Shown here piece after piece: positions 38,146-61,469 of a stretch of DNA of 64,000 bases. Both the position numbers and the translations under genes were made by a program. The stretch's first letter is position 1. Each line of letters starts with the position of its first letter. The DNA comes from an uncultured Dehalococcoidia bacterium (lineage in GTDB: Bacteria > Chloroflexota > Dehalococcoidia > Lucifugimonadales > CAJWUJ01). The stretch spans positions 6,239-70,238 of the forward strand of contig CAJWUJ010000005.1 of NCBI GenBank assembly GCA_913047625.1, in the 5' to 3' direction. The notes under the pieces are model-generated. The model ran no database searches. It was given only the letters and a program-made list of their open reading frames with translations, and was not told where the DNA came from.

Positions 38146-38182
38146 CGTATTAGCCCTTTTGAAAAAACTTATCTATTAAAAT

Positions 38183-39292: not shown

Positions 39293-39361
39293 ATTTATGT
39301 CTCCATGTTAATGACGTATTGAAGCGTATATTTGATATAGGTTAACGCTTTCTGCGCTAAG

Positions 39362-41619: not shown

Positions 41620-41667
41620 AGTATTTCCCTTCGTTAATTTTTGGAATGCTGATTATATATTATGTTG

Positions 41668-42432: not shown

Positions 42433-42524
42433 GTCTTTGATACCTCCGTGCTTTTAGCATATCTATTCTAGACAAGATGTAATGGATTGAGTAGTAGGCA
42501 AATAATGTATATCTGAAAAGAACG

Positions 42525-44549
42525 TTACTCCAGTGGTTGCACTATTATTCGGGATTTTTCTGTTAGTAGGAACAGATTGGCCATTTGCTTGTCGATTTGT
42601 AGCGTGTTGGCAGGCAGAGATGCCTTATGGATTATCCTCAGGACCACAGGATTACTGATTTCTGGAAGGTAGACCTGGACTAATGCCCTGTCTGTAAGAG
42701 TGGGATCGACAGTAGGGAGGTTTAAGTATCCAACTCTGACTCCATTTGAAAATTTCCTAACAGCTTTAATAGAAATATTGAGAGTAAGTTTCTTCTGGTC
42801 TAGAGTTGTTCTTAAAGCGTTGGTCTCCTCGAGGTCAATGGTAGGAGGTATGCCGTCTAGAACCACCCCGTACTTTGCCCGTGCGTGATCTAGTGAGATT
42901 TTGTCTTCCAGATAATCTTGTAATACGAGATTTGGTGATCTGAGTAGTGGATCTCCATATCCTCCACCTCCTTGGGTGGAGATTCGGATAATGTCGCTAC
43001 GTGACAATGAAAATCCGGTTGCTTTGCTATGAAATCTGGGTGAAATTAGACGGTTTTTCCCTGATCTGATCAATTCCCATTTTGCAGTTAAACCTGGATG
43101 ACCTTGTGATAGTCCTGTTGCTGGAACTATGGCATGATCCCCAAGAAAGGATATGGTGCCTGAAGAAGGGATTGTATACTCCCGAACAACCCCCATGCCT
43201 CCTCGAAATTGACCTGGCCCACCAGAGTTCTTCCTGAGTTCATATTGATTGAATCTAATTGGGAATAGGGACTCAAGTACTTCTACTGGCTGTATATTGA
43301 CGTTTCCTGATCGTAAGGATCGGACAAAGTCCAGACCATCTTTATCATACCTTCCTCCTCCGCCACCTCCTGGATAATCGTAGTAGATGTAGCGTTTGGG
43401 AACACCTTGTCTATTATCAATTCCGAATAGGTTTTGATGGTTTGCTCCAGCTCCTTCTCCAGCGCTGACCGTACGCGGTGCAACATTGCTTAACGCTTGC
43501 ATAACAAAAATAGATGCTTGACCAAGTTCAGCCATCCCTGCTGCTGGCGATGGCTCTGAGGCATTGAGCATTGAGTGCTTAGGAGCTGTAACACTAATAG
43601 GACGGAAGGAACCTGAATTGATTGATCCTTCCGGATCCAATGATGCCTTAACACCCATGAACGCGAAGCAATGGGCTAAAACTTCACTGACGTTGAGTGG
43701 TCCCTGGGATTCCTCTGCACTTCCGGAGTAGTCTACGTGAATTGTATCGTCCGCTATTTCAGTATTAACTCGGATCACCCTTTGTTGTTTGCTGACTCCG
43801 TCATTATCCAGATACCCTTCATAACAACTTGAACCGTCAGGGAGGCTTTGGATAATCATTCTCATACGACGTTCTGATAAATCCAAGATATCAGTCCAGT
43901 GTTGCATTGCACTTTCGGGTTCATAGCGAGTTAGTAATCCTTGTATTCTATCGATTGCAATTTTGCAGCTTGCCACCTGTGCGAATATGTCTCCTCTGGT
44001 TTGGTCAGGAACCCGTACATTTTTTAGAATAAACTGTAGTATTTCTTCGTTTAGAGTACCGTGAGATCCTATTTGCATAGGGGGGATTCTAAGCCCTTCT
44101 TGATATATTTCGCGGGCGTTTCCTGAGATACTGCCAGGAACCATTCCGCCAACATCGTACCAATGGGCTCTGTTAGCAGCGTATGCCACTAGCTGGCCTC
44201 GAAAAAAAACAGGCATAAAAATGAGTACGTCATTGAGGTGGGTGCCACCGTCATATGGGTCATTCCCAATAAAAATATCACCCTCCTCTATAGTTTCTTG
44301 AAACTTTGCGACTGTGAGATTTACCTGCCATATGATGGGGAAAATGTGGATTGGTATACTAGTTCCTACCGCTAATAAATCCCGTTCCTTAGTCAGGATA
44401 CCGCAAGAGAAGTCTCGTCCTGTGTACACTACCGCTGATCGAGCAGTTCTCAATGTAACCTCTGCCATTTCTCGAACAATTGATTCAAGTCGGTTACGAA
44501 TCACCTCTCTGCTAATTGGATCTGATACGGTGGAAGTACGATTATTCAT
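42525..44549 (-). CDS. hydantoinase B/oxoprolinase family protein (HyuB-1) with about 90-aa C-terminal extension
   Basis: Shares NDPYDGGTHLNDV, GGPGQFRGGMG and GGGGYGDP motifs with the other HyuB copies. 2-nt gap to hyuA. Confidence 0.88.
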   Translation of the reverse strand: MNNRTSTVSDPISREVIRNRLESIVREMAEVTLRTARSAVVYTGRDFSCGILTKERDLLAVGTSIPIHIFPIIWQVNLTVAKFQETIEEGDIFIGNDPYDGGTHLNDVLIFMPVFFRGQLVAYAANRAHWYDVGGMVPGSISGNAREIYQEGLRIPPMQIGSHGTLNEEILQFILKNVRVPDQTRGDIFAQVASCKIAIDRIQGLLTRYEPESAMQHWTDILDLSERRMRMIIQSLPDGSSCYEGYLDNDGVSKQQRVIRVNTEIADDTIHVDYSGSAEESQGPLNVSEVLAHCFAFMGVKASLDPEGSINSGSFRPISVTAPKHSMLNASEPSPAAGMAELGQASIFVMQALSNVAPRTVSAGEGAGANHQNLFGIDNRQGVPKRYIYYDYPGGGGGGRYDKDGLDFVRSLRSGNVNIQPVEVLESLFPIRFNQYELRKNSGGPGQFRGGMGVVREYTIPSSGTISFLGDHAIVPATGLSQGHPGLTAKWELIRSGKNRLISPRFHSKATGFSLSRSDIIRISTQGGGGYGDPLLRSPNLVLQDYLEDKISLDHARAKYGVVLDGIPPTIDLEETNALRTTLDQKKLTLNISIKAVRKFSNGVRVGYLNLPTVDPTLTDRALVQVYLPEISNPVVLRIIHKASLPANTLQIDKQMANLFLLTEKSRIIVQPLE

Positions 44550-44551
44550 GG

Positions 44552-46651
44552 CTAAGCCTTCTTCAAAATCAAATTACCTAAGTTATCTATGCTGACAGAA
44601 AAGTCTGGGGGTACAAGGGTAGTTGAGGTGTGTTCTTCTATTATTGCGGGTCCTTGTAAGTTGAAATCTCTGTCGAGTGTCTCTCGGATAAACACTGGTG
44701 TTTGGACTTCTTTCATTACTTCTCGAAAATAAACGAGTCTGGTTGTTCTACTGTTTTGAGATGCTCGATTTGCTTTTGGCTTATAGATTGGCGACTTAAA
44801 ACTAATGTGGGGAAGCAAGCCCGTTACCCTAACTCGTAAATTGACTATCTCGCATTCGTCCTCTGGGCACATGTAGGTGAAAAGCCGTTGATGTTCGTGA
44901 TGAAAGTTTTGAATGAGGTTTTCAACGTCTAGAGCTTGTGTATCTAAGGAACTCAAAGGAACGGTAAGGGAGTGAAATTGACCCACATATCTCATGTCGA
45001 CCATTTTTTCCACTAAGATTTCAGTAGTTTTTAACCCCGCATCAAGTAATCTCCCCGTAAGTTCGGATTCCATTTGATCAAAGGTTGATGTGATTTTAGT
45101 GAGGCTAGTTCCTGAACAAGCACTTGTACGTATGATATACGTGCTAACAGAATCGTACATTAAATTAGTGGAAAGAAGCCCTATAGCTGAGAAATTACCC
45201 GGGGCTAATGGGATTATAGCTTTTCTTAGATCCAGTTCTCGAACAACGCTTGCGGCTTGTAGAGGCCCAGCACCGCCAAAAGCTATGAGATCAAAATCTC
45301 TGGGATCTCTTCCTCGTGATATAGTTACTTCTCGGATTACATCTGCAGTTTTAGCATCCGCTATTTCTAGTACCCCTGAGGCAGCTTCTTCACACGAAAT
45401 AGCTAAAGCTGTTCCGATATCCCTTGAGAGTGCTCGTTTTGCCATATCTATGTCTAGTGGCATAGATCCTCCGAGTAAAGAATGCACTCTACCTAAAGCT
45501 GCATTAGCATCAGTGATAGTTGGATAATTGCCTCCTTGCCCGTAGCAAACCGGGCCAGGATTAGAACCGGCACTTTGTGGTCCAATATGTAATTGTTTCA
45601 TGGCATCAACTCTGACAATACTACCTCCACCCGCTCCGATCTCGACTATGTCTATCATCGGGACACGTAGAGGTAATCCACTCCCTGGCCTATTATTGGA
45701 TTTAAATAACTCGTATTCAGTAGTTGAAAGAGGGGCACCATTTTCTATGACAGAAGATTTAGTTGTTGTTCCGCCCATGTCTAGAGTAATGACGTTAGGA
45801 CTACCACAACTAGTGGCAAGTTGTGCTGCAGCAATAGCTCCTGCTGCAGGACCGGACTCCAGAATATGAATAGGTCGGTCGCTTGCTTCGGAGGTCGTCA
45901 TCGCTCCACCATTCGACTGCATGATGTGGATAGGGACTTTGAGCCCAGCCTTTTCTATCCGTTCAGATAATTTAGACAGATAGGTACTTATGGTAGGTTG
46001 AATATATGCATTGAGAGTAGTGGTTGAAGTTCTCTCATATTCTCCTATTTCTGGTACGAGTGTCGATGATAGAGTTAGGGAAATCTGAGGGAAATGTTTT
46101 TTTATCAGCGTTTGTATTATTTGTTCGTGTTCGTTGTTGGCATAGGAGTTCAGTAAGCATATGGCTATTGATTCTAGTTTTTGCTCTTGCAAGAAGGTGA
46201 TTAGACTGTCACTGCAACCTTGAGCATTAAGTGATTTTATGACGGCTCCATCGCTTGCTATTCTCTCATCGATACCGAACCGTTGTCTTCGTGGCACGAA
46301 GCTAGGTGGTTTGTCCATAAGGGGATCCAGAACGTGGGTTCTCGCGCCCCTTCTTAATTCAATGAAATCCCTGAAACCTTTCGTTGCTATAATTCCAGTT
46401 TTGGCTCCTTTGTGCTCCAGGAGGGTATTTATTCCTACAGTTGTCCCATGATTCAGGAATACGATCTCAGCTGGCTTAATGCCTGCAGATGCTAAAGTAG
46501 CTATGACTGCTTGGGCAGGATCTGCCCCGGTAGTCATGGTTTTTAGGTGAAGAAACTCATTGGTGGACTCATTGATACATGTTATATCAGTGAAGGTCCC
46601 CCCAACATCAATTCCTACGTAAAATCCTGTTTGCATAGTATTTAATCTCAA
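44552..46651 (-). CDS. hydantoinase A/oxoprolinase family protein (HyuA, ASKHA-fold ATPase component)
   Basis: 699 aa. GIDVGGTFTD N-terminal phosphate-1 motif and DMGGTTT phosphate-2 motif. Confidence 0.9.
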   Translation of the reverse strand: MRLNTMQTGFYVGIDVGGTFTDITCINESTNEFLHLKTMTTGADPAQAVIATLASAGIKPAEIVFLNHGTTVGINTLLEHKGAKTGIIATKGFRDFIELRRGARTHVLDPLMDKPPSFVPRRQRFGIDERIASDGAVIKSLNAQGCSDSLITFLQEQKLESIAICLLNSYANNEHEQIIQTLIKKHFPQISLTLSSTLVPEIGEYERTSTTTLNAYIQPTISTYLSKLSERIEKAGLKVPIHIMQSNGGAMTTSEASDRPIHILESGPAAGAIAAAQLATSCGSPNVITLDMGGTTTKSSVIENGAPLSTTEYELFKSNNRPGSGLPLRVPMIDIVEIGAGGGSIVRVDAMKQLHIGPQSAGSNPGPVCYGQGGNYPTITDANAALGRVHSLLGGSMPLDIDMAKRALSRDIGTALAISCEEAASGVLEIADAKTADVIREVTISRGRDPRDFDLIAFGGAGPLQAASVVRELDLRKAIIPLAPGNFSAIGLLSTNLMYDSVSTYIIRTSACSGTSLTKITSTFDQMESELTGRLLDAGLKTTEILVEKMVDMRYVGQFHSLTVPLSSLDTQALDVENLIQNFHHEHQRLFTYMCPEDECEIVNLRVRVTGLLPHISFKSPIYKPKANRASQNSRTTRLVYFREVMKEVQTPVFIRETLDRDFNLQGPAIIEEHTSTTLVPPDFSVSIDNLGNLILKKA

Positions 46652-46661
46652 CCTTGCAGTT

Positions 46662-47762
46662 TCATAAAATCTTGTACGGTTTTAGTCCTTGGGTATCTAT
46701 CTCTATTCCCAAGCCTGGATCGCTGGATGGTATTGCGTAACCTTCTTCTAATACAAGATGTTGTTTGAAACATTTGCCCCACATAGGATCTGTTGTGCTG
46801 TTGTAATATTCTAGAATCATTCCATTTGGTATGGCGGTCGCAAGGTGGATATGGAGTTCTTGCAGACCATGAGGTGAGATGGGCAGATTGTATGCTTGAG
46901 CAAGAGCAGCAACTTTCATAAATTCGGTAATGCCGCCAAGAACTTGAGCGTCTGGATTTAATATGGCAACACATTGGCCTTCTATAAGATCTCGGAAACC
47001 GTAACGAGTGAATTCGTTTTCTCCTGCTGCGATTGGTATCGAAGTAGCGTCAGCAACTAATTTGTGCCCTCGATAGTCATCCGGAGCTACGGGTTCTTCG
47101 AACCAGAATATATCGAATTCCTCTAGTCTTTTTGCAATCCTAATCGCTTCGGAATAAGTATACGCATTATTCGCATCAACCATAAGATTAACGTCTGGTC
47201 CAATAGCGTCTCTGGCAATTCGTACTCTTTCTATGTCTTGTGCAATAGAAGCGCCTCCTATTTTCATCTTAACTGATGTGACACCCAGTTCGACATAAGA
47301 TGACATTTCAGAAGACAAATCAGACAGTGTTTTTCCTTCTTCATAATAGCCACCCGCCAAATAAACTGGTATTGATTCTTGATATCCTCCAAGTAGTTTA
47401 TGCAGTGGCTGATTAGTAGCTTTGCCTCGAATATCCCATAGTGCAATATCGATTAGGCTGATAATTTTGGTTGATAGACCTCTGCGGCCTACAACTTTTG
47501 GTGCCCATAACTGAGCCCAAATCTTCTCTACATCGAATGGATTTTCGCCGATTAGAATTGGTTTGAATTCGTCAACAAACGCCTTGATGATACCAAACGG
47601 AATGATCGTTACACCTCCGGTAATGCCCAATCCGTAGACCCCACTGTCGGTATCAATAGTTATGACCGCTATGCCACCCTTTGGATAGATATACTTTCCA
47701 TTCCTCAGAGGCTTCGGTCTGTTCCATTCATAACCAGTTATGTTTATATCTGTAATTTTCAT
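46662..47762 (-). CDS. enolase-superfamily enzyme (mandelate racemase/muconate lactonizing family)
   Basis: 366 aa. KMKIGG, MVDANNAY, FEEP and AAGENE match the metal-ligand and general-base pattern. Confidence 0.85.
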   Translation of the reverse strand: MKITDINITGYEWNRPKPLRNGKYIYPKGGIAVITIDTDSGVYGLGITGGVTIIPFGIIKAFVDEFKPILIGENPFDVEKIWAQLWAPKVVGRRGLSTKIISLIDIALWDIRGKATNQPLHKLLGGYQESIPVYLAGGYYEEGKTLSDLSSEMSSYVELGVTSVKMKIGGASIAQDIERVRIARDAIGPDVNLMVDANNAYTYSEAIRIAKRLEEFDIFWFEEPVAPDDYRGHKLVADATSIPIAAGENEFTRYGFRDLIEGQCVAILNPDAQVLGGITEFMKVAALAQAYNLPISPHGLQELHIHLATAIPNGMILEYYNSTTDPMWGKCFKQHLVLEEGYAIPSSDPGLGIEIDTQGLKPYKIL

Positions 47763-50388: not shown

Positions 50389-51252
50389 TTAATGTGATAA
50401 ATAATCCTGCTGTTGTTGTCGATATTCTCCAGAATGCAAGATGGCATTTTCTAGTTCGGTCGCTATAGACTGCTCTTTTAAGGCGGAAGGATTTCCTCCA
50501 TCCTTTAGGTGTTTTAGAGAATCGTAGAGAGTTTTCATTGTCGTAAAAAATGGTTGATGGCCGGTTAGTACTACTTTGACATTGTTTTTCAAGAGAAATG
50601 AATTCTCTTTCAGTTTGTCACTGGCGCTGCCAAGAACAAGAGGAAGATGTGTGTTCTTCCGAATGCTTTCGATGTCGCCGTATTCCTTTGCTCCGACGAC
50701 CATAATGGCATCAACATTTAGGTTTGAGTAGGCACTCACCCTTTTGCTGGTATCATCTAGACTGGTGCTTGAGAGGCCGTTAGTCCGGGCAATGATTACT
50801 GTATTAGGATCTCTCTTTGCATCAATAGCAGCTCTTAATTTCCCTATCATTTCATCGCATGAGATCAAGGAAGTATCTGAACTTCCGTATTGTGGTGGAA
50901 GGGCTGCATCTTCTATTGTAATGGCAGCTGCGCCTGCTCGCTCAAGCTCTTGGATAGTCCTGCTGGCATTTAGCGCGTTACCGTACCCGTTATCGGCATC
51001 TACCATCAGGCTGATGTCGCTCACTCTGCAGATTCTCTCCACCTGATCGCTAAGTTCTGAAAGTGTAAGTACCATAATATCTGGAGCGGCTAATATAGCA
51101 GCGGATGCTACTGACCCGCCTAATATACCCAGATCAATTTTCAAATGGTCTGCTATGCGTGCAGAAATTGGATCAAAAACTGAAACTGGATATCCAATGT
51201 TTGGACCATTTAAATAGTTTCTGAACTGCTTCCGTTGTTTTGAAAAAGTCAT
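50389..51252 (-). CDS. isocitrate lyase/PEP mutase superfamily protein, divergent active-site loop
   Basis: VDADNGYGNA and IEDA motifs. I moved the start to ATG 51252 (GGAG upstream). The tracked ORF start at 51414 overlaps the upstream HyuB gene. Confidence 0.7.
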   Translation of the reverse strand: MTFSKQRKQFRNYLNGPNIGYPVSVFDPISARIADHLKIDLGILGGSVASAAILAAPDIMVLTLSELSDQVERICRVSDISLMVDADNGYGNALNASRTIQELERAGAAAITIEDAALPPQYGSSDTSLISCDEMIGKLRAAIDAKRDPNTVIIARTNGLSSTSLDDTSKRVSAYSNLNVDAIMVVGAKEYGDIESIRKNTHLPLVLGSASDKLKENSFLLKNNVKVVLTGHQPFFTTMKTLYDSLKHLKDGGNPSALKEQSIATELENAILHSGEYRQQQQDYLSH

Positions 51253-51286
51253 CCTTCTTCTCCTTTGATTCACTCTGTCTTTTTTA

Positions 51287-53017
51287 TTAGGCTTGGGATC
51301 GAAGTTTTGTTGTAGATTGCCAGTCGATAGAGGCGTCCTCACTTTTAAATACAACCCCATAAACACTCTTTGCACGAGAAAAGCTAATTTTCTCGTGCAA
51401 AATATCTTCAGCAACCTGATCAGGGTTTCTCTCTAATGGATTACCCCATCCTCCTCCTCCAGGCCAATGAACTTCAAGAGTATCTCCTGCACTAAATGTT
51501 TCCAAAAATTTTGTTGGTTTAACATGGTAGTAACCATTTTTTACTGTGGTAATTGAAGTTGGTTTGGATGAACCTCCTCCCCAAAGCCCATAAGGAGCTA
51601 CTTTGCTTCTATCAGATCGGACTTGGATCGTTGTTTCATCCACAGCACATTGATATTTGCGTTTCATTCCCATACCACCTCGATACTTCCCTGGCCCTTC
51701 AGAGTCTGGGATGAATTCGTATTCCAAGATTTTAACAGGGTGATCTATTTCAAGAATCTCTACAGGTGTGTTTGCTCCGTTTAACATTCCTGCAGAAACT
51801 GCATCGGGACCGTCACGATAAGAGAACGCTCCCATACCAGGCTCCACTGCGAAGTCGAGTAAGACCCACGGCTTCCATGGAACATGCTTTTTATTGTAGC
51901 CTGAAATTGCGACGCCAAGTTCTGCTCCTGCACATGCCGCATAGACTTTGTGAGGCAACATCTGGGCAAAAGCTCCAAATAAAGTATTTGCGATGCGAAC
52001 GAGCCCTAGAGTTCTTGCTGCAACAGGAGCAGGAAGCACTGGATTTACAAATGTTCCCTCTGGGGCATTGATGTTGACTGGTTTAAAATAGCCTGAAGTA
52101 TTTGGAATTTGAGGGCCTAGAAGGCACTTAACTACTGCATATACCACAGCATGGGTAGTTGCAAGTACAGGTTGGATTGCGCCGTTACATTGCGGAGAAG
52201 TCCCCGAAAAATCCACTGTTAATTCGTCTTTTTCTTTCGTGACTGTAGCAGTAATTCTAATGCTATCAGTGCTAAACCCATCATCGTCTATATAATCGCT
52301 AAATGACCATGTCCCGTTCGGCATTTGGCTGATTGCTTGTCGGGTTAGGTTTTCTGTGTATTCAATCAGTTGTTGAACCTGTTGTTCTAATGGCTCTATT
52401 CCGTATTGATTGATCAGCTCTAAATACTGTGTTTCACCGTACTCAAGACCTGCTATTTGCGCTTGTAGGTCTCCCATCACCATCTCTGGGACTCTTACTG
52501 CTTTTTCAAGCAACCGGTACACCGTTTCATTAGGGGTACCATCGACATATAGTTTTACGGGTGGAATCCTAATTCCCTCTTGGTAGATTTCTGAACTATC
52601 ACAGGCGTTTCCACCTGCTACTCTTCCCCCTATATCTGTATGGTGTGTCATAGCGCATAGGTATGCAGCTATGCGATTTTGGATGAATACTGGCTTGAAT
52701 AGGAAAATATCCGGAAGATGAGAGCCCCCTTCGTACGGATCGTTTAATATGAAGATGTCCCCTGGCCGAATGTTTTCTTGATAATAGTCTGTGCAAGCCT
52801 TCAGCGCAGGCATCATTCCTCCCAGATGAATCGGTAAACAAAACCCTTGTCCAATAAGCTCTCCAGTTGAACTCAGAACGCCTGTGGAATAATCTAAAGC
52901 TTGTCGAACAACTGTTGACCGAGAGGTTCTCACGACAGTGAGAGCCATACCATCTCCAATACTTTCGAGGGCATTTTTCAGTATTTCAAGTTTTATTGGA
53001 TCGGGTGATCTAACCAT
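51287..53017 (-). CDS. hydantoinase B/oxoprolinase family protein (HyuB-2), no adjacent HyuA
   Basis: NDPYEGGSHLPDIF, GPGKYRGGMG and GGGGWGNP. I chose the start at 53017 by N-terminal alignment to HyuB-4. It gives an 8-nt overlap with the aldolase gene. Confidence 0.85.
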   Translation of the reverse strand: MVRSPDPIKLEILKNALESIGDGMALTVVRTSRSTVVRQALDYSTGVLSSTGELIGQGFCLPIHLGGMMPALKACTDYYQENIRPGDIFILNDPYEGGSHLPDIFLFKPVFIQNRIAAYLCAMTHHTDIGGRVAGGNACDSSEIYQEGIRIPPVKLYVDGTPNETVYRLLEKAVRVPEMVMGDLQAQIAGLEYGETQYLELINQYGIEPLEQQVQQLIEYTENLTRQAISQMPNGTWSFSDYIDDDGFSTDSIRITATVTKEKDELTVDFSGTSPQCNGAIQPVLATTHAVVYAVVKCLLGPQIPNTSGYFKPVNINAPEGTFVNPVLPAPVAARTLGLVRIANTLFGAFAQMLPHKVYAACAGAELGVAISGYNKKHVPWKPWVLLDFAVEPGMGAFSYRDGPDAVSAGMLNGANTPVEILEIDHPVKILEYEFIPDSEGPGKYRGGMGMKRKYQCAVDETTIQVRSDRSKVAPYGLWGGGSSKPTSITTVKNGYYHVKPTKFLETFSAGDTLEVHWPGGGGWGNPLERNPDQVAEDILHEKISFSRAKSVYGVVFKSEDASIDWQSTTKLRSQA

Positions 53018-53786
53018 TGTTAGAAGGGTCCTTCGTTTTAAACGGTTCAAGGTATTTCAAAAAAGCTTGTTTCAATTGATCATGGGCGATTGTAACAGCA
53101 AAGTTGATATTGTCTTTGTCGAGTTGATCAATATTTCCATATCGAGTTGCTGCGCCTACGATTTTTCCTTGATTAGAAATCTTAGTTGCCATTTCACTTA
53201 CTATTTTGTCCATGGTTTCTTGGCCTGGCCAACCTAATTCTGCTGAAAGATTTCCTGCACCGATCCATACAATGTCAATGCCTGGGACTGCTGCTATTTG
53301 ATCTATGCAGTCGATACTTTCTTTGTTTTCACACAAGGCAATACAGAGTGTCTCTTGATTGGCAAATTGGCTATATTCCTTTGGAGTTCGGTGTAATCCG
53401 AAATCATTGGTCTGGATCCACCCGCATTGATCTCTGTTTCCATCAGGTACGAATTTACATGCTTCTACAAATCTCTGTGCATCCTCAGCAGAACGAACAC
53501 TAGGCATTACAATGCCCATGGCGCCCCTATCTAGAAGCCTCCTGCATCCGTAATAATCAGCTTCATGCCGTACAGCTGCTAGAGGAATTAAGTCACGAGC
53601 AAAAGCGGCTCGTATCATATGTTCTGCTTGGTCGTCACTCACAGGGCTGTACTCACAATTTATAATCATAAAATCAAAGCCTACCTCAGCAATTAATTCC
53701 GCGACGAATGGCGAAGAAAATGTGAGATCACACCCAATTACCCTGTTCCCATTGAGTAACTTCTCCTTTAGCTTATTCTTATGCAT
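53010..53786 (-). CDS. HpcH/HpaI-family aldolase (copy 2)
   Basis: 258 aa. Same family pattern as copy 1 (FMIINCEYSP, MPSVRSAEDA, CENKESIDCIDQIA). Confidence 0.78.
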   Translation of the reverse strand: MHKNKLKEKLLNGNRVIGCDLTFSSPFVAELIAEVGFDFMIINCEYSPVSDDQAEHMIRAAFARDLIPLAAVRHEADYYGCRRLLDRGAMGIVMPSVRSAEDAQRFVEACKFVPDGNRDQCGWIQTNDFGLHRTPKEYSQFANQETLCIALCENKESIDCIDQIAAVPGIDIVWIGAGNLSAELGWPGQETMDKIVSEMATKISNQGKIVGAATRYGNIDQLDKDNINFAVTIAHDQLKQAFLKYLEPFKTKDPSNNG

Positions 53787-53805
53787 TTGATCCCCAATCT
53801 ATAGT

Positions 53806-55479
53806 TTAGGTTTGTATTTTGTAGTCTTCAGTTGCTGAAGTTTCAGAAATTATTTCGTCTTTTAAATCTTGTACAACTGCAGTAGGGCTTCGGTCAGAAG
53901 GATTTCCAAAGCCTCCTCCGCCAGCAGTAATAAAATGTAAGAATTCTCCGTTCTTAACTTGTAGGAGTCCTTTGGAAGGAAGAGCCTGATCACTGTCGAT
54001 CCAGCCAAGTTGGTATCCAGTGCCTGATAAGCCTCCAGAGAACCCCTGAGCCTTGTAGTTAACTCTTTCAGACAGCATAGCCAACTCTATTTGGTGGTTA
54101 CCTGTCATTTCCAGAATAAGCTCTTGGCCGTACCCACCTCGATATTTACCTGGTCCACCCGAATCAGTGCGTATTTCCCGTTTCCATGCTATTAAAGGGG
54201 CATTAGATTCCATCATTTCTATCGGAGTACTCCCACTATTTGCAGGAAAGCCTGAGCAGGAAATACCGTCACCATGGGCGCTGGCTCCCATGCCTCCATG
54301 AATGCACAGAACAAAAACGAAGGGTTCTTCGTTGAGTCCTTTGCCGTAGAATGTGCACATGAGATCTGGGTTGCTTCCGCTGTCAGCTATTACTTTGGTA
54401 GGGATAATCGATTGGAGAGCAATTAATACTGATGAGCAAACGCATCTACCAACCAATTGACGGGCATTCACCGGCGCGGGGTAGGTAGCATTAAGGATAG
54501 ATCCTTCTGGGATTTTGATAGAAAAAGGTTTGTAGGATCCTTCGTTTTTATATGTTTGCGGGTCAAGAATACTTTTCAGGGTGTATGCAGTCCAAGCAGC
54601 TGTATAGGCAGGGACGCAGTTTATTCCTCCGGTATTGGTTTGAGGGGATGATCCGCCGTAATCCACGATAATGTGGTCGTCCATGACTTCTACAGTACAT
54701 TTAATATGTAGCGGAACGTTTTCAAAACCGTCCAAGTCGAGATAGGATTCGTATTTGCCGTTAGGAATCTTTTTTATAGCTAGACGCATTGATGCTTCTG
54801 CACGTGATTGCAGTTCTTTGCTTATTTCTTGTAAATCAGGTAAGTGATATTCATCCAGAAGTTCGATCAGGAGATCTGCACATTTTTCCAACGAAGCTAT
54901 TTGCGCAAAGAAATCGCCTGATACCTGTTTCGGTAGCCTGACATTTCCTTCGATGAAATCCATAAGTGATTTATTCAGAATGCCTTGGTTGAAAATCTTT
55001 GTGGGGGGAATCATTATGCCTTCTTCAAAAACAGAATTACAACTTGCTGACCAAATAGTCCCACTTATGTCTGCCCAGTGTGCTACATTTGCGGCAAAAC
55101 CGACAATCCTATTTTTTGAAAATACAGGCTTGATAATCACTACGTCAGGCTTGTGCCCTGTTCCTATCCATGGGTCATTGGTGATTACGACATCCCCTGG
55201 GAACCAAGAATCTAGTGGCATCAAGTCCAAGATTATCCTCATTGTTCTAGGAAGACATCCTGCGAATGATCCTGCAGTACCCTGATTTTCAGCTAGCGAA
55301 TCACCTTGTTTATCGAGTAGGACACAGGTATAGTCATTGCACTCTCTGATTAGTGTAGAAAATGCTGTCCTGGTCAGAGTGGCGGCTGACTGGTCGCAGA
55401 TAGCGATCAATCTGCTCCAGATAATTTCCAGTAACACAGGGTCTAAATCAGGATTGGTTTGATCTGTTTTTTGTTGCAT
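53806..55479 (-). CDS. hydantoinase B/oxoprolinase family protein (HyuB-3), no adjacent HyuA
   Basis: 557 aa with NDPWIGTGHKPDV, GGPGKYRGGYG and AGGGGFGNP. Confidence 0.85.
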   Translation of the reverse strand: MQQKTDQTNPDLDPVLLEIIWSRLIAICDQSAATLTRTAFSTLIRECNDYTCVLLDKQGDSLAENQGTAGSFAGCLPRTMRIILDLMPLDSWFPGDVVITNDPWIGTGHKPDVVIIKPVFSKNRIVGFAANVAHWADISGTIWSASCNSVFEEGIMIPPTKIFNQGILNKSLMDFIEGNVRLPKQVSGDFFAQIASLEKCADLLIELLDEYHLPDLQEISKELQSRAEASMRLAIKKIPNGKYESYLDLDGFENVPLHIKCTVEVMDDHIIVDYGGSSPQTNTGGINCVPAYTAAWTAYTLKSILDPQTYKNEGSYKPFSIKIPEGSILNATYPAPVNARQLVGRCVCSSVLIALQSIIPTKVIADSGSNPDLMCTFYGKGLNEEPFVFVLCIHGGMGASAHGDGISCSGFPANSGSTPIEMMESNAPLIAWKREIRTDSGGPGKYRGGYGQELILEMTGNHQIELAMLSERVNYKAQGFSGGLSGTGYQLGWIDSDQALPSKGLLQVKNGEFLHFITAGGGGFGNPSDRSPTAVVQDLKDEIISETSATEDYKIQT

Positions 55480-55597
55480 TGTTTTATATTAGTCGGATCG
55501 CAGAGTCGAGCAGAGAAAATCGTTTTATTTTCCTATGCCAGTTACAGATCGGTAATGTATCACTATTGACTGAAAGAAGCTAACAAAGGCCGTTGGA

Positions 55598-56887
55598 TTA
55601 TGAGGAGGTTTGCGGTTCTTCATAAACTAACTTGGGTCCTAATATCAAGCAAATAATTGCAATTGACATCCCTATTGCTGCTATGGCGGCAGGAATAGTA
55701 TATGCACCTGTTGCGTCGTGCATGGTACCCATGAACAATGGTCCAGCTGCCATGCCTAATAACATACAACTTGTTAGTGATCCTGAAATAGCTCCGATAT
55801 GCCTGATACCAAAGGCTGAAGCAGCTGCAATAGGAACCAATGTGCTAAATGCAGTAGCGGCGATTCCCAGTGGAATCGGGCATAACAGAAATACCCATTT
55901 TGGTATGTCAAGTGCACTGACTGTTAAAAGTAGCAGGGGTGCTATAGTGGCACCTGCAGTTGAAAATGAGAGGATACGCTTGATGGGGATCTTGTCGCTA
56001 AGATATCCGTAGGTAAATTTGGTAATTGCAGCAAGAAGCCCTATGAGACTTAATAATGTGGCAGCTGTGGTTGTGGAAAATCCAAGATCGAGAACAAAAG
56101 GTTGCACTTGGGAAAATGTTCCGTTGGACGAGAATAAGGCAGTAAAAAACACAAATACCACTACCCAAAACTTTGATGTTCGTACTGCCTCGCTTAAAGA
56201 AATTCCTGGCAAAGCAGCATAAACTTCAGAACGCGTGACTTTCTTGGAACTGTCGATTGTGTTTGTGGTGATTCCATCTGGTTCTAATCCCAGCTGATAG
56301 GGGTCTGATTTAATTACCAATAGGGTTAACGGAATAAGAGTAGACCAAATCAGAATTGCAAAAATCAGCATGGTTGACTGCCAATCCATCGATTGGATGA
56401 GAAATTCTGCTATCGGGCTCATAACAAATCCGCCAGCACCCATTCCTGTGTAAGTTATTCCGATAGCTAATCCTCTTCGCTTTTGAAACCACCTTGATAT
56501 TATTGCGTTTATGCTGATTCCACTAGATGCTGCCAGACCTACCCCGGCTGTTATATATCCTAAGAAAAAATGCCAAGGTTCTGTGACTTGGCTAAAGGAA
56601 AAGACTGCTGTTCCGATGATTAAAGCGCCTGCAAACATGATTAATTTGCCACCGTAAACATCAATCAGTTTTCCGATTACAGGTCCTGTAATCGCCATAG
56701 CTAGAATTCCGGCCGAATAAGTTGCGCTAAAAAGCCCTCTTGACCAACCAAGATCTGTATGAATTGGCTCGTAAAAAACAAATATTGCGAATATAACGAC
56801 GCCGTAAGTAATGAAAAATGAAAACCAGCACGAAGCTACAATGTACCACCCATAAAAAAAACGATCGGGTTTTACAGGTTCACTCAT
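55598..56887 (-). CDS. MFS transporter
   Basis: 429 aa with 12 predicted TM helices and the GKLIDVYGGK loop motif. Confidence 0.85.
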   Translation of the reverse strand: MSEPVKPDRFFYGWYIVASCWFSFFITYGVVIFAIFVFYEPIHTDLGWSRGLFSATYSAGILAMAITGPVIGKLIDVYGGKLIMFAGALIIGTAVFSFSQVTEPWHFFLGYITAGVGLAASSGISINAIISRWFQKRRGLAIGITYTGMGAGGFVMSPIAEFLIQSMDWQSTMLIFAILIWSTLIPLTLLVIKSDPYQLGLEPDGITTNTIDSSKKVTRSEVYAALPGISLSEAVRTSKFWVVVFVFFTALFSSNGTFSQVQPFVLDLGFSTTTAATLLSLIGLLAAITKFTYGYLSDKIPIKRILSFSTAGATIAPLLLLTVSALDIPKWVFLLCPIPLGIAATAFSTLVPIAAASAFGIRHIGAISGSLTSCMLLGMAAGPLFMGTMHDATGAYTIPAAIAAIGMSIAIICLILGPKLVYEEPQTSS

Positions 56888-56945
56888 GAATGCTGAACCG
56901 TGAATACAATGTGGGAATTATCCATGCCTGATTAAATGTGATCGT

Positions 56946-57266
56946 TTAACGAAGTCCTCTCTCAGTTAGTTTTTCAATGGTAACTATTTCAAAGAATTCT
57001 ACAGTGTTCGACTCGGTAATTTCACGCACTTTGGCAGCATTGGTTCTCACAGATTCTGGTACATTCGAAAACCAGTTTGGTTCTATAACATCTTGAGTCC
57101 ATTCTGCGTACGCTACATCGGGATCCCCTGGTAGCCCTTGGCTTATATAAATAGTAGCTTTGTTACGACCGTTCTTTTCGTATGCTTCGCAAATAGTGGT
57201 TAGTAATGCGGCTGTATCCCATGCCTTGTTTGGTTTGGTTTTGAGTGTTCTTCGGATAAGGTACAT
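56946..57266 (-). CDS. hypothetical protein (106 aa), possibly a ferredoxin-like alpha+beta barrel (NIPSNAP/ABM-like)
   Basis: The N-terminal MYLIRRTLKTKPNKAW resembles the beta1-loop pattern of NIPSNAP-like proteins. This is a weak call. Confidence 0.35.
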   Translation of the reverse strand: MYLIRRTLKTKPNKAWDTAALLTTICEAYEKNGRNKATIYISQGLPGDPDVAYAEWTQDVIEPNWFSNVPESVRTNAAKVREITESNTVEFFEIVTIEKLTERGLR

Positions 57267-57437: not shown

Positions 57438-58094
57438 ATGGTTGTCGAGCATATTCAGATATCCCAAGAAGAGGTTGTGACTTCGGCATTATACAATGTG
57501 CCAAGCGTGGACTCCACGGCTATACTTGTGCTAGCGCACGGTTCAAGCGAGGGCATGCGTTCCGACCTCTTTGATGGTGTGTCAAATCACTTAGAACTCG
57601 CGGGGATATCAGTTTTCCGATTTAATTTTCCCTATATTGAAATGGAGAGACGAACGCCAGACCGCAGCGAAAAACTAGAATCGTGTTTTCAGGCAGCTTT
57701 GTCGTACGTTGAGAAAAGATCTGAGGAAAAAAAAATATTTATAGGAGGTAAATCACTGGGAGCAAGAATAGCCGTTAAACTTGCCTCAACATCTTACCGT
57801 CCTCATGGAGTAGTGTGTTTAGGGTATCCTTTTCATCCACCAGGAAAACCGGATCGGATCAATGGCGAAGTGATTCGAACGTTAAACGTGCCTACATTGT
57901 TTTTGCAAGGGGAAAAAGATCCGTTCGCTAAAATAAATCATATAAGGCCCCTTATAGAAGAATCCAGACAATTTTCTTTAATAGAAATCTCAGGTGGCGA
58001 TCATTCATTTAATGTCAAGAATCAATCGAATTCACTAGTGCATGCATTGCTGTCACGGCATGTTGAAACTTTTATAACTAAACTTTCGCGGTGA
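57438..58094 (+). CDS. alpha/beta hydrolase (KANL3/Tex30-type, dienelactone-hydrolase-like)
   Basis: 218 aa. Nucleophile elbow GGKSLGA, a C-terminal GGDHSF His motif, and LAHGS near the N-terminus. Confidence 0.7.
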   Translation: MVVEHIQISQEEVVTSALYNVPSVDSTAILVLAHGSSEGMRSDLFDGVSNHLELAGISVFRFNFPYIEMERRTPDRSEKLESCFQAALSYVEKRSEEKKIFIGGKSLGARIAVKLASTSYRPHGVVCLGYPFHPPGKPDRINGEVIRTLNVPTLFLQGEKDPFAKINHIRPLIEESRQFSLIEISGGDHSFNVKNQSNSLVHALLSRHVETFITKLSR

Positions 58095-58096
58095 TC

Positions 58097-59518
58097 TTAT
58101 ATATCAGGTAATAGGGTATGCCATGATGAGTGTTGTTGGAACAAATTGGCTAGTTGCATTACAGCTAAATCCTGAAAAGGAGCTCCAATAATTTGCAATC
58201 CAACAGGGAGGTTACTGGATGTGGTCCCACACGGGATTGAGATAGCTGGACAACCTCCGAGTGCCGCAAGGCCAGTAGGACCCCTTGTAAGTGTGTAACT
58301 GCTCAAAGCTTGTTTTTCTGTTGTAAGGTCTTCTAATGGAACGATCGTTGGGGCTGGTTGCAGTTGAGTAGGGCAAACAAGAAGTTGATAAGTGGTAAAA
58401 CATTCTTTGATTTGATCCAGCATTTCCTGTTTTATTTGAAGTAAATGCTGATAAACTCGTGACGGGATTAAATGAGCTGCCATCAACCTTCTCCGCATTA
58501 ACTTTCCGTAGGATTCGGGAGTTTGCTTCAGTGTATCGCTATGCACTGTCAATGCTTCACTTTCTGATATTGCGGCTACTACAGCCATCGCGTCTGTACT
58601 GGCTGGCAGCGAACATGGTTCGACAGTAAAACCTTCTTGTCTGAAAATATCTAACGAAGAGTAGATCGCAGTCCCAATTTCTTGGTCAATGTACGGTTCT
58701 TCCATCATTTCTGTAATAAGACCTATACGTTTAATTGTAGGTTTATCATCTACCGCGGAGAAGAAAGAAGGCAGTTTGGTGGAAACCGTTGACGGGTCCA
58801 ATGGATCATATCCAGTAATGCTATCCATGACTAACGCTACATCTTTAGCAGTTTTAGTAATCGGACCCGCGATATCAAAACTTGAAGAAATAGGAATACT
58901 TCCATGACGGCTTACTAGGCCCTGGGAAGGTCTAAGTCCTGTGGCTCCACAGTGTGATGCAGGAATTCTAACTGAGCCACCTGTATCCTCAGCTATGCTG
59001 AAAGCGCACAAGGATGCAGCAGTCGCAATACCGCTTCCGCTGCTTGAAAATCCTGGACTTCTGTTTGTGTCCCAAGGGTTTCTGGGTGTTCCGTAAGGAA
59101 AATAGTCCCCAGTTCCCATCCCGAATTCTGTCATGTTCAGTTTGCCTATGAGAATGGCCCCCGCACTATTCAAGCGTTCAATCACTGTGGCATTCGTATT
59201 GGGTGTATATGAGGAGAGAATTCTGGATCCTGCGGTTGTGCTAGCGTCACTAGTGAAGAATGCATCTTTTATTGCATAGGGTAGTCCGAATAGAGGTGGA
59301 TATCTATTACCTTGCAAAAGAGATCGTTCTAAATTGCGAGCAGTTTTTAAAGCAGAGTCAGGGATGGTGGTGATGAAGGCATTAAGGGTTGGATTTAATT
59401 GTTCTATTCTCTCTATATAGCTAGAAACTAGGTCTACTGGAGAAATTTGCTTCGTTTGAATCAGCGTTCTTAGTGTAGAAGCTGAAGATGTAAGGACTTC
59501 AGTCGGCAGTCGAACCAT
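58097..59518 (-). CDS. amidase-signature (GatA/AtzE-like) amidase
   Basis: 473 aa. Catalytic Lys in YAIKDAF, and the Ser-rich signature GFSSSGSGIATAA. Confidence 0.88.
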   Translation of the reverse strand: MVRLPTEVLTSSASTLRTLIQTKQISPVDLVSSYIERIEQLNPTLNAFITTIPDSALKTARNLERSLLQGNRYPPLFGLPYAIKDAFFTSDASTTAGSRILSSYTPNTNATVIERLNSAGAILIGKLNMTEFGMGTGDYFPYGTPRNPWDTNRSPGFSSSGSGIATAASLCAFSIAEDTGGSVRIPASHCGATGLRPSQGLVSRHGSIPISSSFDIAGPITKTAKDVALVMDSITGYDPLDPSTVSTKLPSFFSAVDDKPTIKRIGLITEMMEEPYIDQEIGTAIYSSLDIFRQEGFTVEPCSLPASTDAMAVVAAISESEALTVHSDTLKQTPESYGKLMRRRLMAAHLIPSRVYQHLLQIKQEMLDQIKECFTTYQLLVCPTQLQPAPTIVPLEDLTTEKQALSSYTLTRGPTGLAALGGCPAISIPCGTTSSNLPVGLQIIGAPFQDLAVMQLANLFQQHSSWHTLLPDI

Positions 59519-59693
59519 GCTGTGTTAGAACCTTTGCAATTAAATCTTTAGTGGCGTATTTGCTGGTCATATCTTGGATCAACTTAATGGATGTGTTTAA
59601 TCGTACACGAACTTCCACTAGATCCTCATCTGGAATATTAAGACCTATTGAGGATGCCAAACTCAGGATTTCTTTGTTGGTTATCTTTGGCAT
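59499..59693 (-). CDS. GatC-like small protein (AtzG-like amidase partner candidate)
   Basis: 64 aa counted from ATG 59693. ITNKEILSLASSIGLNIPDEDLVEVRVRLNTSIKLIQDM mirrors the GatC helix pattern. 20-nt overlap with the amidase start. Confidence 0.55.
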   Translation of the reverse strand: MPKITNKEILSLASSIGLNIPDEDLVEVRVRLNTSIKLIQDMTSKYATKDLIAKVLTQHGSTAD

Positions 59694-59729
59694 TATTCTT
59701 CCATTATGCAAGTAGCTGTATTGAATCGT

Positions 59730-61469
59730 TTACGCATTGGCGAGACTTCTGGATTGCTCGGTGGCATTGATGTCAATCGTGAGGTCTTCACGTATGACCA
59801 CTCCATAAGTGTCTTTTGCACGTTTCAGCGAGACTTTGCCTTCAATGACATCGGTTAGAACAGCCTCAGGATTACGCTCTATTGGGTTTCCCCAGCCACC
59901 ACCTCCTGGACACTCCAGTCGCCAACTGTCCCCTTGTTGTACAGGGATGATGACTTTGTTGGGTAGTTCTTCCGGGTTACTGTCTGGATTTAAAATCACC
60001 CGAGTCTTGGCTGATTCCTGTCCGCCATGGAGACCATACGGAGGATATTTGACTCGATCTGCTCTAATCTGTATTTGGGTGTCCGGTGACGTATTTCGGT
60101 ATTGGCGTACCATGCCTAAGCCACCTCTAGACTTTCCTGCTCCTTCAGTGTCTTGTAACAAAGCGTACTCTTCAACCATAATTGGTGTGTCAATTTCCAT
60201 GATTTCTGCAGGAATATTGCTTGAGTTATGGATGCATGGTTGTTGAGCATCTGCGCCATCTCGTTCTGCACTTCCTCCGGTAGCATTGGAGACAAGAGGA
60301 TCCATTTGGATCCACGCTTTCCAAGGACTGACTGTTTTATCATAGCCTGAAAACGCAGCAAAATATTCGTTCCCACCCCAACATGCCGGCATTTTTTGAG
60401 GTAGCATTAAACCAAAAGCACCAAAGACTGCCTGAGCTATTCTGTAAGCTCCTAATGCTCTAGCTGCTACTGGTGCAGGTAACAGAGGATTGGTAAATGT
60501 TCCTTCCGGAGATGTGACGGTAATGGGTCTAATATAGCCACCTGTATTTGGGATAGATGTGCCTAGTACAGATTTCACAACGGCATATGTCACTGACTGG
60601 GTAGTGCCAAAAACTGGTTGTATTGCCCCTTTGCATTGTGGGGATGTGCCATCAAAATCAATATAAAGTTGATCATCTTTCTTAGTTATGGTGGCTTGTA
60701 TCTTTATAGTCTCGTCGCTGATGCCGTCGTCATCTATATAATCACTAAACGTCCACGACCCCTCGGGTAATTCTCTGATAGCTGCTCGCGTTAGTTTTTC
60801 CGTATATTCAAGGAGATTATCTTGCGCTGCCAGCAGAGTTTCTGGGCCATGTCTTTCCGCGAGCTGTTGCCATTCGCGGGTTCCAATGTTGATGGCTGCG
60901 ACCTGTGCCATCAGATCACCAGTGACTTCATGAGGTATTCGGACAGCTTTCTCCAGTATTCTGAACATTGCGTCGTTGGGAACACCTCTGTCATATAGCT
61001 TGATGGGGGGAATACGTAACCCCTCCTGATAAATTTCCGTTGAGTCACAGGCGTTACCTCCTGCCACTCTGCCTCCTATATCACTATGGTGGGACATAGC
61101 ACAGGCAAAACCGAGCAATATGCCATTTTGAAAAACTGGTTTGAAGAGGAATATGTCGGGTAGATGGGTGCCACCTTCGTAGGGATCATTAATAATAAAG
61201 ATGTCCTCTGGATGAACTTGATTGTTATAGTGACTTAGGCACGCTTTTAAAGCAGGTCCCATGCATCCTAGATGTAAAGGAATACTGAACCCCTGTCCTA
61301 TGATTTCACCTTTTGCATCCAAAAGACCACAGGATAAGTCAAACCCCAGTCTTACGCAGGAAGAACGAGAAGTCCGAACCGCTATCAACATCATCGTGTC
61401 ACCTATGCCTGATAGGGCATGGTTGATTACCTCAAGGAGTATATTATCTGTGGATTTCGTGGCAGTCAT
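59730..61469 (-). CDS. hydantoinase B/oxoprolinase family protein (HyuB-4), no adjacent HyuA
   Basis: 579 aa. By eye it is roughly half identical to HyuB-2 over the full length (NDPYEGGTHLPDIFLFKPVF, GGGGWGNP). Confidence 0.88.
   Translation of the reverse strand: MTATKSTDNILLEVINHALSGIGDTMMLIAVRTSRSSCVRLGFDLSCGLLDAKGEIIGQGFSIPLHLGCMGPALKACLSHYNNQVHPEDIFIINDPYEGGTHLPDIFLFKPVFQNGILLGFACAMSHHSDIGGRVAGGNACDSTEIYQEGLRIPPIKLYDRGVPNDAMFRILEKAVRIPHEVTGDLMAQVAAINIGTREWQQLAERHGPETLLAAQDNLLEYTEKLTRAAIRELPEGSWTFSDYIDDDGISDETIKIQATITKKDDQLYIDFDGTSPQCKGAIQPVFGTTQSVTYAVVKSVLGTSIPNTGGYIRPITVTSPEGTFTNPLLPAPVAARALGAYRIAQAVFGAFGLMLPQKMPACWGGNEYFAAFSGYDKTVSPWKAWIQMDPLVSNATGGSAERDGADAQQPCIHNSSNIPAEIMEIDTPIMVEEYALLQDTEGAGKSRGGLGMVRQYRNTSPDTQIQIRADRVKYPPYGLHGGQESAKTRVILNPDSNPEELPNKVIIPVQQGDSWRLECPGGGGWGNPIERNPEAVLTDVIEGKVSLKRAKDTYGVVIREDLTIDINATEQSRSLANA

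Follow-up and report, generated by a model that had tools for sequence, protein, structure and literature searches.

A lineage-specific run of HyuB genes without an adjacent HyuA in a catabolic island of SAR202-type Dehalococcoidia

The stretch of DNA analysed here (the window) comprises 64,000 nucleotides of contig CAJWUJ010000005.1 from an uncultured Dehalococcoidia bacterium. At 50389–57266 it carries a run of six co-directional minus-strand genes, two of which encode HyuB-type proteins. In the ATP-dependent hydantoinase/oxoprolinase/lactamase-carboxylase family, HyuB is the subunit that contains the metal and processes the substrate; its ASKHA ATPase partner is HyuA. An earlier description made from the DNA letters alone (the sequence-only reading) had presented the run as a candidate novel module, and the six genes, their order and an 8-nt overlap that it described were upheld by the open reading frame (ORF) listing and by Pfam scans. 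In order along the minus strand the genes encode a 106-residue protein, a major facilitator superfamily (MFS) transporter, HyuB-3, an HpcH/HpaI-type protein, HyuB-2 and a PEP_mutase-family protein. The first four are separated by 58, 118 and 19 nt, the stop of the HpcH gene then overlaps the start of the HyuB-2 gene by 8 nt (ATGGTTAG), and 34 nt precede the last gene. The ORF listed for this last gene extends to 51414; however, its start was set at Met55, giving a product of 287 residues, because both homology and the gene calls in relatives begin there. The two HyuB proteins that bracket the HpcH gene are indeed dissimilar, with an identity of 33%, whereas HyuB-2 and the HyuB-4 protein encoded elsewhere in the window share 53%. 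Since at least five independent assemblies (contigs L001, L097, L098, L177 and L178) agree on this arrangement, it is not an assembly artefact.

No HyuA gene lies within the run. As the sequence-only reading had also stated, the single HyuA of the window is encoded 5 kb away; Pfam and tblastn agree on this, and that HyuA is coupled to its own partner, HyuB-1. This HyuA retains its ATP motifs unbroken (DVGGTFTD15, DMGGT291 and GSNPGP362). Together, the window contains four HyuB genes and one HyuA. A tblastn search with five diverse HyuAs, at E values up to 10, revealed no second HyuA or HyuA remnant in the 64 kb, and HyuA was likewise not found in the ∼ 8 kb that follow the 3′ end of the window. 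The features concerned are collected in Table 1.

Table 1. Genes of the six-gene run and the other hyu genes of the window.
Feature	Position	Strand	Remarks
106-residue ORF, first gene of the run	56946-57266	-	No match in Pfam or NCBIfam
MFS_1 transporter	55598-56887	-	Pfam MFS_1, E 4e-49
HyuB-3 (Hydantoinase_B)	53806-55479	-	PF02538, E 2.6e-137, 458.9 bits, profile 1-519/519
HpcH_HpaI protein	53010-53786	-	PF03328, E 9.6e-16, 58.2 bits (cut-off 25)
HyuB-2 (Hydantoinase_B)	51287-53017	-	PF02538, E 1.3e-164, 548.9 bits, profile 1-519/519
PEP_mutase-family protein, last gene of the run	50389-51252	-	PF13714, E 5e-33
HyuA (ASKHA ATPase subunit), sole HyuA in the window	44552-46651	-	Pfam Hydant_A_N, Hydantoinase_A, Hydant_A_C
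HyuB-1, cognate partner of HyuA	42525-44549	-	674 residues; 2-nt gap to HyuA
HyuB-4, further HyuB without adjacent HyuA	59730-61469	-	Hydantoinase_B; 2.5 kb upstream of the run; upstream of an amidase gene

The metal ligands of the caprolactamase subunit CapB are Asp41, His99, Asp102 and His124, and they are essential in that enzyme (PMC8453981). All four occur in each HyuB of the window (HyuB-1 to HyuB-4) as well as in seven relatives. When the genes of the run were compared with those of L001, a population variant of 96–97% identity (dS 0.30–0.47), the ratio of non-synonymous to synonymous substitution rates (dN/dS) was 0.052 for HyuB-2, 0.056 for HyuB-3, 0.035 for the HpcH gene and 0.062 for the last gene of the run. 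As judged from these sequence comparisons, HyuB-2 and HyuB-3 are intact and under purifying selection. The closest solved relatives of HyuB-2 are the fused A-B N-methylhydantoinase 7hk5 (E 1e-77) and CapB, 6yra_B (E 3e-71). Moreover, the conserved residues of the two helices reported to contact CapA are kept at 0.85–0.93 in those HyuBs that lack a neighbouring HyuA gene (orphan HyuBs), compared with a leave-one-out baseline of 0.91–0.92 in paired proteins, and by this coarse two-helix test no relaxation of HyuA-interface residues was seen in the orphans.

These data bear directly on the notion that HyuB-2 and HyuB-3 are in decay or no longer functional, as paralogs that duplication has left behind in a gene-rich island, an outcome that the sequence-only reading had itself named as fatal to its proposal. 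The loss of HyuB-3 and HpcH from a sister lineage (see below) marks part of the run as dispensable, and in locus L010 a relative of the HpcH gene has been split by a transposase, which would be in keeping with decay. However, at least five assemblies contain the ORFs at full length, the Hydantoinase_B Pfam profile is covered completely, every metal ligand is kept and dN/dS lies at 0.035–0.062. Decay is contradicted by this evidence and is considered extremely unlikely.

The genomic context of the HyuB-2, HyuB-3 and HpcH homologs was surveyed together with 80 GTDB loci and 80 metagenome loci. HyuA abuts HyuB in 77 of the 80 GTDB loci that encode relatives of HyuB-2 and HyuB-4 (34–58% identity), and of the three exceptions two are short contigs. 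For HyuB-3, the closest relatives outside the lineage, P0133 (52% identity) and P0137 (48%), each abut a HyuA, and P0016 is also HyuA-paired. This distribution of sequences points to HyuA coupling as the ancestral state. Orphan HyuBs were seen only among the closest marine relatives (L002, L006, L007, L011 and L013), and in a neighbour-joining tree they do not form a single clade (0 of 100 bootstraps). The sister of the L011 orphan is the paired P0016 and that of the P0018 orphan is a fused form encoded at L020, while HyuB-4 groups with the tandem operons of L021 and L023. An all-orphan clade is nonetheless present at ∼ 62% identity, and joins window HyuB-2 and P0002 with P0003 and P0005. A single uncoupling event giving rise to one orphan clade is ruled out by the tree and its bootstraps. 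Because the orphans are polyphyletic, uncoupling from HyuA has arisen at least three or four times among close paralogs, and it is both recurrent and recent. Orphan HyuBs also tend to be found near a HyuA-HyuB pair, which lies 5 kb away in the window, 2.3 kb away in L011 and as a divergent neighbour in L006.

The fused form is itself of some interest. At L020:10001-13830 (CBDFHC010000005.1, from a Dehalococcoidia metagenome-assembled genome, MAG) one ORF of 1276 residues comprises an N-terminal HyuB and a C-terminal HyuA. This order, B-A, is the reverse of the A-B order found in the eukaryotic oxoprolinase and in the 1288-residue N-methylhydantoinase (PDB 7HK5).

In the preferred reading of the locus, HyuB-2 and HyuB-3 are ATP-dependent HyuA·HyuB enzymes that receive HyuA in trans and feed oxo-acid lyases; its probability is put at roughly 0.58. 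The contrary view is that the orphan HyuBs are stand-alone, ATP-independent metalloenzymes, working directly with the HpcH-like lyase and the decarboxylase homolog encoded at the end of the run. The activities that can be imagined for such enzymes are the hydrolysis of an activated or strained amide or ester, or the decarboxylation of a beta-keto acid, which is the downhill reverse of a carboxylase reaction. This view draws on the lack of any HyuA or remnant in the run and on the ratio of one HyuA to four HyuBs in ∼ 72 kb. In addition, the 8-nt HpcH/HyuB-2 overlap suggests co-translation with a lyase and not with an ATPase, the ∼ 62% all-orphan clade persists under purifying selection, and the sole nearby HyuA is not orthologous to the partners used by relatives. 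However, we know of no characterised member of the family that works without its ASKHA subunit. In caprolactamase, product formation drops strongly when the CapA ATP site is mutated, and an inter-subunit tunnel supplies the HyuB site (PMC8453981). The orphans are, moreover, polyphyletic sisters of paired or fused forms, so that a change of mechanism would be needed repeatedly, and no sequence signature accompanies it: metal ligands and interface-helix residues are as conserved as in paired proteins. HyuA-independent catalysis is therefore judged unlikely. The wider idea, that HyuA-unlinked HyuBs form an unrecognised class of stand-alone ATP-independent metalloenzymes coupled to oxo-acid lyases in SAR202, is if anything more doubtful still. 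Nothing indicates a new mechanism at the run. Thus, of the two explanations offered by the sequence-only reading, a borrowed HyuA is favoured, whereas an ATP-independent HyuB-HyuB enzyme is not supported, the nearest outside relatives of both HyuBs being HyuA-adjacent or fused.

The HyuB-3-HpcH-HyuB-2 gene order is limited to contigs of 96–100% identity (those of the five assemblies named above), and the HyuB-HpcH-HyuB arrangement did not recur outside this population in the survey. A sister lineage, in which HyuB-2 is 81% identical, is represented by four contigs from different samples (L013–L016). Here the order is a 107-residue protein, the MFS transporter, HyuB-2 and the decarboxylase homolog, with the MFS gene directly next to HyuB-2. 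The intervening 254-nt spacer keeps the HyuB-3 start codon and ∼ 24 N-terminal codons and then runs into the HyuB-2 start; in L013 the HyuB-3 stub reads M..DLDSILLEIIWKGR*, compared with MQQKTDQTNPDLDPVLLEIIWSRL in the window. These sequences indicate that the sister lineage deleted ∼ 2.4 kb, corresponding roughly to window positions 55404 to 53018, in a single event. An insertion of HyuB-3 and HpcH in the lineage of the window was also considered and is ruled out by the HyuB-3 start and ∼ 24 codons that L013 retains. It follows from the deletion that the ancestor possessed the full six-gene run, that the pair of HyuB-3 and HpcH can be dispensed with as one unit and that HyuB-2 has no need of HyuB-3. 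What has been retained together in the sister lineage is the small protein encoded by the first gene, the MFS transporter, HyuB-2 and the oxaloacetate decarboxylase homolog. Relatives of the HpcH protein at 62% identity lie in unrelated gene contexts, and no HyuA, HyuB or PEP-mutase gene was found in the flanks of 78 more distant HpcH loci. A novel conserved module is thus not supported, as the arrangement is conserved only at 96% identity or above, within one population, which is essentially an outcome that the sequence-only reading had named as refuting its proposal: the six-gene order is a lineage-specific patch of a catabolic island and not a conserved new module.

The deletion is also informative with regard to a mixed complex, in which the customary B-B homodimer core would give way to a B-B′ heterodimer of HyuB-2 and HyuB-3, flanked by shared HyuAs, with two metal sites acting on consecutive intermediates. 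The caprolactamase CapAB is an (αβ)2 tetramer in which two HyuB-type subunits provide the dimeric core (PMC8453981). The HyuB-2 and HyuB-3 genes lie only 0.8 kb apart in one co-directional run, and tandem HyuB-HyuB-HyuA operons exist in L021 and L023. Nevertheless, HyuB-2 has been kept intact in at least four independent contigs of a lineage that lost HyuB-3 and HpcH. Moreover, the two proteins, at 33% identity, belong to different subfamilies, each with HyuA-paired relatives of its own. A mixed complex is very unlikely on balance. The operons themselves (L021:8322-13845 and L023:8265-14039, in MAGs labelled Alphaproteobacteria) have overlapping gene junctions, and their second HyuB is the closest relative of window HyuB-4 (55% identity). 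They are a real precedent for two HyuBs per HyuA and fit the B-B core of CapAB.

The precedent that the sequence-only reading had cited for two HyuBs in one complex was acetophenone carboxylase, which proved to be inapplicable. The α and α′ subunits of that enzyme are HyuA-like, ATP-binding paralogs and there is a single HyuB-like subunit (PMC8453981, section 2.1); the precedent fails because it is the HyuA-like subunits that are duplicated. NCBIfam is in agreement, in that the window HyuA matches ApcC and ApcA while the HyuBs match only ApcD.

The product of the last gene of the run had been described as a divergent ICL/PEP-mutase-family protein. Its place in the superfamily of PEP mutase and isocitrate lyase stands, but by sequence it is best assigned as a homolog of the PA4872-type oxaloacetate decarboxylase. 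It is 43% identical to PA4872 of Pseudomonas aeruginosa (PDB 3B8I; E 2e-63) over residues 6–285 of 287, and it carries the DADxGYG and IED motifs. Where isocitrate and methylisocitrate lyases have the K(R/K)CGH loop, it reads EDAALPPQYGSS, in which the P-x-Q-[FY]-G pattern is common to PA4872 (LPAQFG) and the window protein (LPPQYG). The methylisocitrate lyase (prpB) model scored 134.7 bits, below its cut-off of 354.4, and the score against the PEP-mutase equivalog was far under the cut-off. The His of the PA4872 sequence ‘NGHAAYF’ is kept in the window protein (TGHQPFF), whereas the Tyr of ‘LVTYGN’, which may be a catalytic residue of the family, faces a gap. A close cluster member, MBH75229.1 (323 residues), carries the NCBI name ‘oxaloacetate decarboxylase’. 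The gene adjoins HyuB-2 in L013–L016 as it does in the window, and this adjacency is confined to the clade of at least 81% identity. To our knowledge, no link between the PA4872 family and HyuB genes has been reported.

The HpcH_HpaI protein of the run is, on the strength of its sequence relationships, a divergent HpcH/HpaI-superfamily C–C lyase of SbnG-like type. Its NCBIfam scores against GarL and HpaI do not exceed 98 bits, compared with cut-offs above 360. The best PDB match, and hence the best solved relative, is 4TV5/4TV6 (E 1e-29), deposited as 2-dehydro-3-deoxyglucarate aldolase; it corresponds to SbnG of Staphylococcus aureus, an HpcH-fold citrate synthase. In addition, the relative MBH75231.1, from the same 90%-identity cluster, is named ‘SbnG’ by NCBI. 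Tyr46 and Asn179 are invariant in the subfamily (the window protein and P0121–P0124), whereas His and Asp occupy these positions in the second HpcH protein of the window (HpcH_b), in P0125, P0127 and P0128 and in PDB entries 4tv5 and 4mf4. In canonical members the Tyr46 position is that of the active-site His of the D-x-E-H motif and the Asn179 position that of the metal-binding Asp of G-x-x-D-L-S. The protein shares with the HpcH/HpaI class II pyruvate aldolases the Pfam domain, the Glu that binds metal (E153) and an Arg close to the position of the canonical catalytic one, but the canonical His and the second metal ligand, Asp, have been replaced. The HpcH-like protein may not be a typical pyruvate aldolase. 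The subfamily is rare, with 10 word-index matches. At L010:8009-10483 a relative 62–67% identical to the HpcH-like gene of the window is divided by the insertion of a DDE transposase into ORFs of 138 and 160 residues, and the same transposase family occurs again 5 kb downstream.

For the 106-residue protein, no sequence-profile match was obtained. Its AlphaFold2 model has a predicted local distance difference test (pLDDT) score of 94.4 and a beta-alpha-beta-beta-alpha-beta topology. Foldseek placed a NIPSNAP domain protein first (5k9f; E 2.8e-5, TM scores 0.64–0.66), followed by ABM, IsdG and LsrG. From the model, the protein is predicted to belong to the dimeric alpha + beta-barrel superfamily, with a NIPSNAP/ABM-like (Dabb), ferredoxin-like fold. 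The family comprises 56 cluster representatives among 1.84 billion, with Arg6, Arg34 and Trp56 invariant. In L013 the protein is 77% conserved beside the MFS gene, with a dN/dS of 0.08. The exact sequence is recorded on 78 contigs, and the population is therefore common in marine metagenomes. A role as a carboxylase small subunit was considered and dismissed, the fold being generically Dabb/NIPSNAP; no carboxylase small subunit was among the fold-search matches, although a direct comparison was not run. Kinship with a NIPSNAP-like gene that lies beside HyuA in L010 was likewise set aside, as there is no sequence similarity.

The MFS transporter had its best NCBIfam matches with the SfMCT L-lactate transporter, at 148.8 bits and so below the 320-bit cut-off, and with the oxalate/formate antiporter family. 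From its nearest carriers it would be a transporter of monocarboxylate or oxalate:formate-antiporter type. It is ∼ 70% conserved in L013–L015, where it lies directly upstream of HyuB-2.

Taken together, these assignments allow a model for the run in which HyuA is provided in trans. Each HyuB would most likely work in the manner of caprolactamase, by analogy with which a HyuB dimer would form the core and one HyuA would be bound on either side, to give (HyuA·HyuB)2. The HyuA would be the one encoded 5 kb away on the same strand, or another genomic copy not linked to the run. Uptake of a carboxylate substrate would fall to the MFS transporter. HyuA, with ATP, would then phosphorylate a lactam, a cyclic amide or a ketone, or activate it via carboxyphosphate, and the activated intermediate would move along the tunnel to the HyuB metal site, where it would be hydrolysed or carboxylated. 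Finally, the HpcH-like lyase and the PA4872-type decarboxylase would cleave the oxo-acid products towards pyruvate.

Several points weigh against supply of HyuA in trans as drawn here. The HyuAs paired elsewhere with HyuB-2-like and HyuB-3-like proteins share only 36–40% identity with the window HyuA, and HyuB-1 is 31–34% identical to the orphan HyuBs. Because these identities are low, cross-pairing of the orphans with the window HyuA is no more than a candidate arrangement and may be sterically unlikely. The all-orphan clade appears to have been unlinked from HyuA for a long time. The two-helix interface test takes its definition of the interface from a 4-Å structure (as described in PMC8453981), and the count of HyuA genes applies to ∼ 72 kb. 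The chemistry of the pathway, both substrate and order of steps, is an inference by analogy from family membership only. A more specific form of the trans arrangement, in which the single HyuA ATPase acts as a shared hub for several HyuB specificity subunits (1:4 in the island), is possible, though the odds are against it.

A second co-directional minus-strand run, at 37375–47762, surrounds the window HyuA and encodes MR_MLE, HyuA, HyuB-1, a dienelactone hydrolase (DLH), DUF6295, an acyl-CoA-synthetase-like protein, a zinc alcohol dehydrogenase (Zn-ADH) and a second HpcH aldolase. This HpcH aldolase (37375–38145) is more canonical than that of the six-gene run, with which it is 32% identical. 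Since the HyuB-1 run also holds an HpcH aldolase, there are two cases in the window of a HyuB paired with an HpcH-type lyase. At its C terminus HyuB-1 is extended by ∼ 100 residues, like carboxylase-type subunits that bind small subunits. Upstream of the six-gene run, at 57438–61469, lie an Abhydrolase_11 gene on the plus strand and, on the minus strand, an amidase gene and the orphan HyuB-4; in L177 and L178 the gene calls place a 64-residue ORF between these last two. This segment may be another catabolic unit with a HyuB and no HyuA. Promoter, terminator and Rfam scans of the region gave no signal above background. The terminator scan did flag a near-perfect 15-bp inverted repeat, TTTTGCACGAGAAAA...TTTTCTCGTGCAAAG, at 51368–51402 on the minus strand, which sits within the 3′ end of the HyuB-2 coding sequence, ∼ 80 nt ahead of the stop.

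The wider setting is equally rich in catabolic paralogs. The window contains two HpcH, two luciferase-like and two Ala_racemase_N genes alongside its four HyuB genes, as well as enolase-superfamily, amidohydrolase, SDR and MFS genes; luciferase-like monooxygenases are abundant. The best GTDB relatives of HyuB-2 come from Dehalococcoidia MAGs, at 57–58% identity. Several window proteins are identical to, or fall within the 90%-identity clusters of, NCBI proteins MBH75229–MBH75239 of a ‘Dehalococcoidia bacterium’ (GCA_002717085.1, PBCR01000031.1), and one further protein carries the NCBI name ‘SAR202 cluster bacterium’. Of the 120 best HyuB-2 matches, at least 11 fall on one related contig of 1.76 Mb. 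Paralog-rich catabolic islands are the typical picture in SAR202, whose members are proposed degraders of recalcitrant organic matter. The region is part of a catabolic island of a marine SAR202-type Dehalococcoidia lineage that has multiplied HyuB by repeated duplication and dispersed its copies to sites apart from HyuA genes. Among the papers searched, none on SAR202 treats the hydantoinase/oxoprolinase genes of SAR202 itself, and searches on orphan hyuB and on HpaI residues returned nothing relevant. The excess of HyuB over HyuA seen here appears not to have been described so far.

If the preferred reading, with HyuA acting in trans, is true, the run would be one more case of SAR202 multiplying and shuffling the subunits of its catabolic enzymes. 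The main value of the analysis then lies in correction: the re-annotation of the last gene as a PA4872-type decarboxylase homolog, the withdrawal of acetophenone carboxylase as a precedent and the demonstration that the arrangement is not a conserved module. Of more general significance is the excess of HyuB over HyuA, together with the repeated uncoupling of the two. Either one ATPase serves several catalytic subunits or HyuB acts alone, and either answer would refine the annotation of the hydantoinase/oxoprolinase family in marine metagenomes, where every HyuB is now labelled ‘5-oxoprolinase’ or ‘N-methylhydantoinase B’ whether a partner is present or not.

Among characterised systems, the caprolactamase CapAB of Pseudomonas jessenii (PDB 6YRA) and the ATP-dependent N-methylhydantoinase (PDB 7HK5 series) are among the closest. 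Over the whole of their length, HyuB-2 and HyuB-3 can be aligned both with CapB, whose four metal ligands they share, and with the fused N-methylhydantoinase, of which they match the C-terminal half. The window HyuA gives a full-length match to the CapA model (530.9 bits) and retains all three ATP motifs. In contrast to both systems, HyuB-2 and HyuB-3 have no adjacent or fused HyuA. Moreover, HyuB-2 and HyuB-3 score 322.3 and 211.3 bits against the CapB equivalog NF050157, and because the cut-off of that model is 1000 they are not regarded as caprolactamases. The gene neighbourhood also differs from that of lactam pathways, in that C–C lyase genes take the place of the aminotransferase and dehydrogenase genes.

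Acetone carboxylase (AcxABC, PDB 5M45/5SVB) and acetophenone carboxylase (Apc, PDB 5L9W) belong to the same superfamily, and in these enzymes the metal site of the HyuB-like subunit is the place where activated ketone and carboxyphosphate meet. The resemblance of the window proteins to them is weak or partial. HyuB-2 and HyuB-3 match ApcD weakly, at 139 and 101 bits compared with a cut-off of 1500, the match to the acetone carboxylase α subunit is partial (E 2e-15, residues 27–256 only), and the run has no genes for a γ or ε subunit. The locus also resembles the paralog-expanded catabolic gene families of SAR202 Chloroflexota, with which the window shares both its marine Dehalococcoidia/SAR202-type origin and its wealth of catabolic genes.

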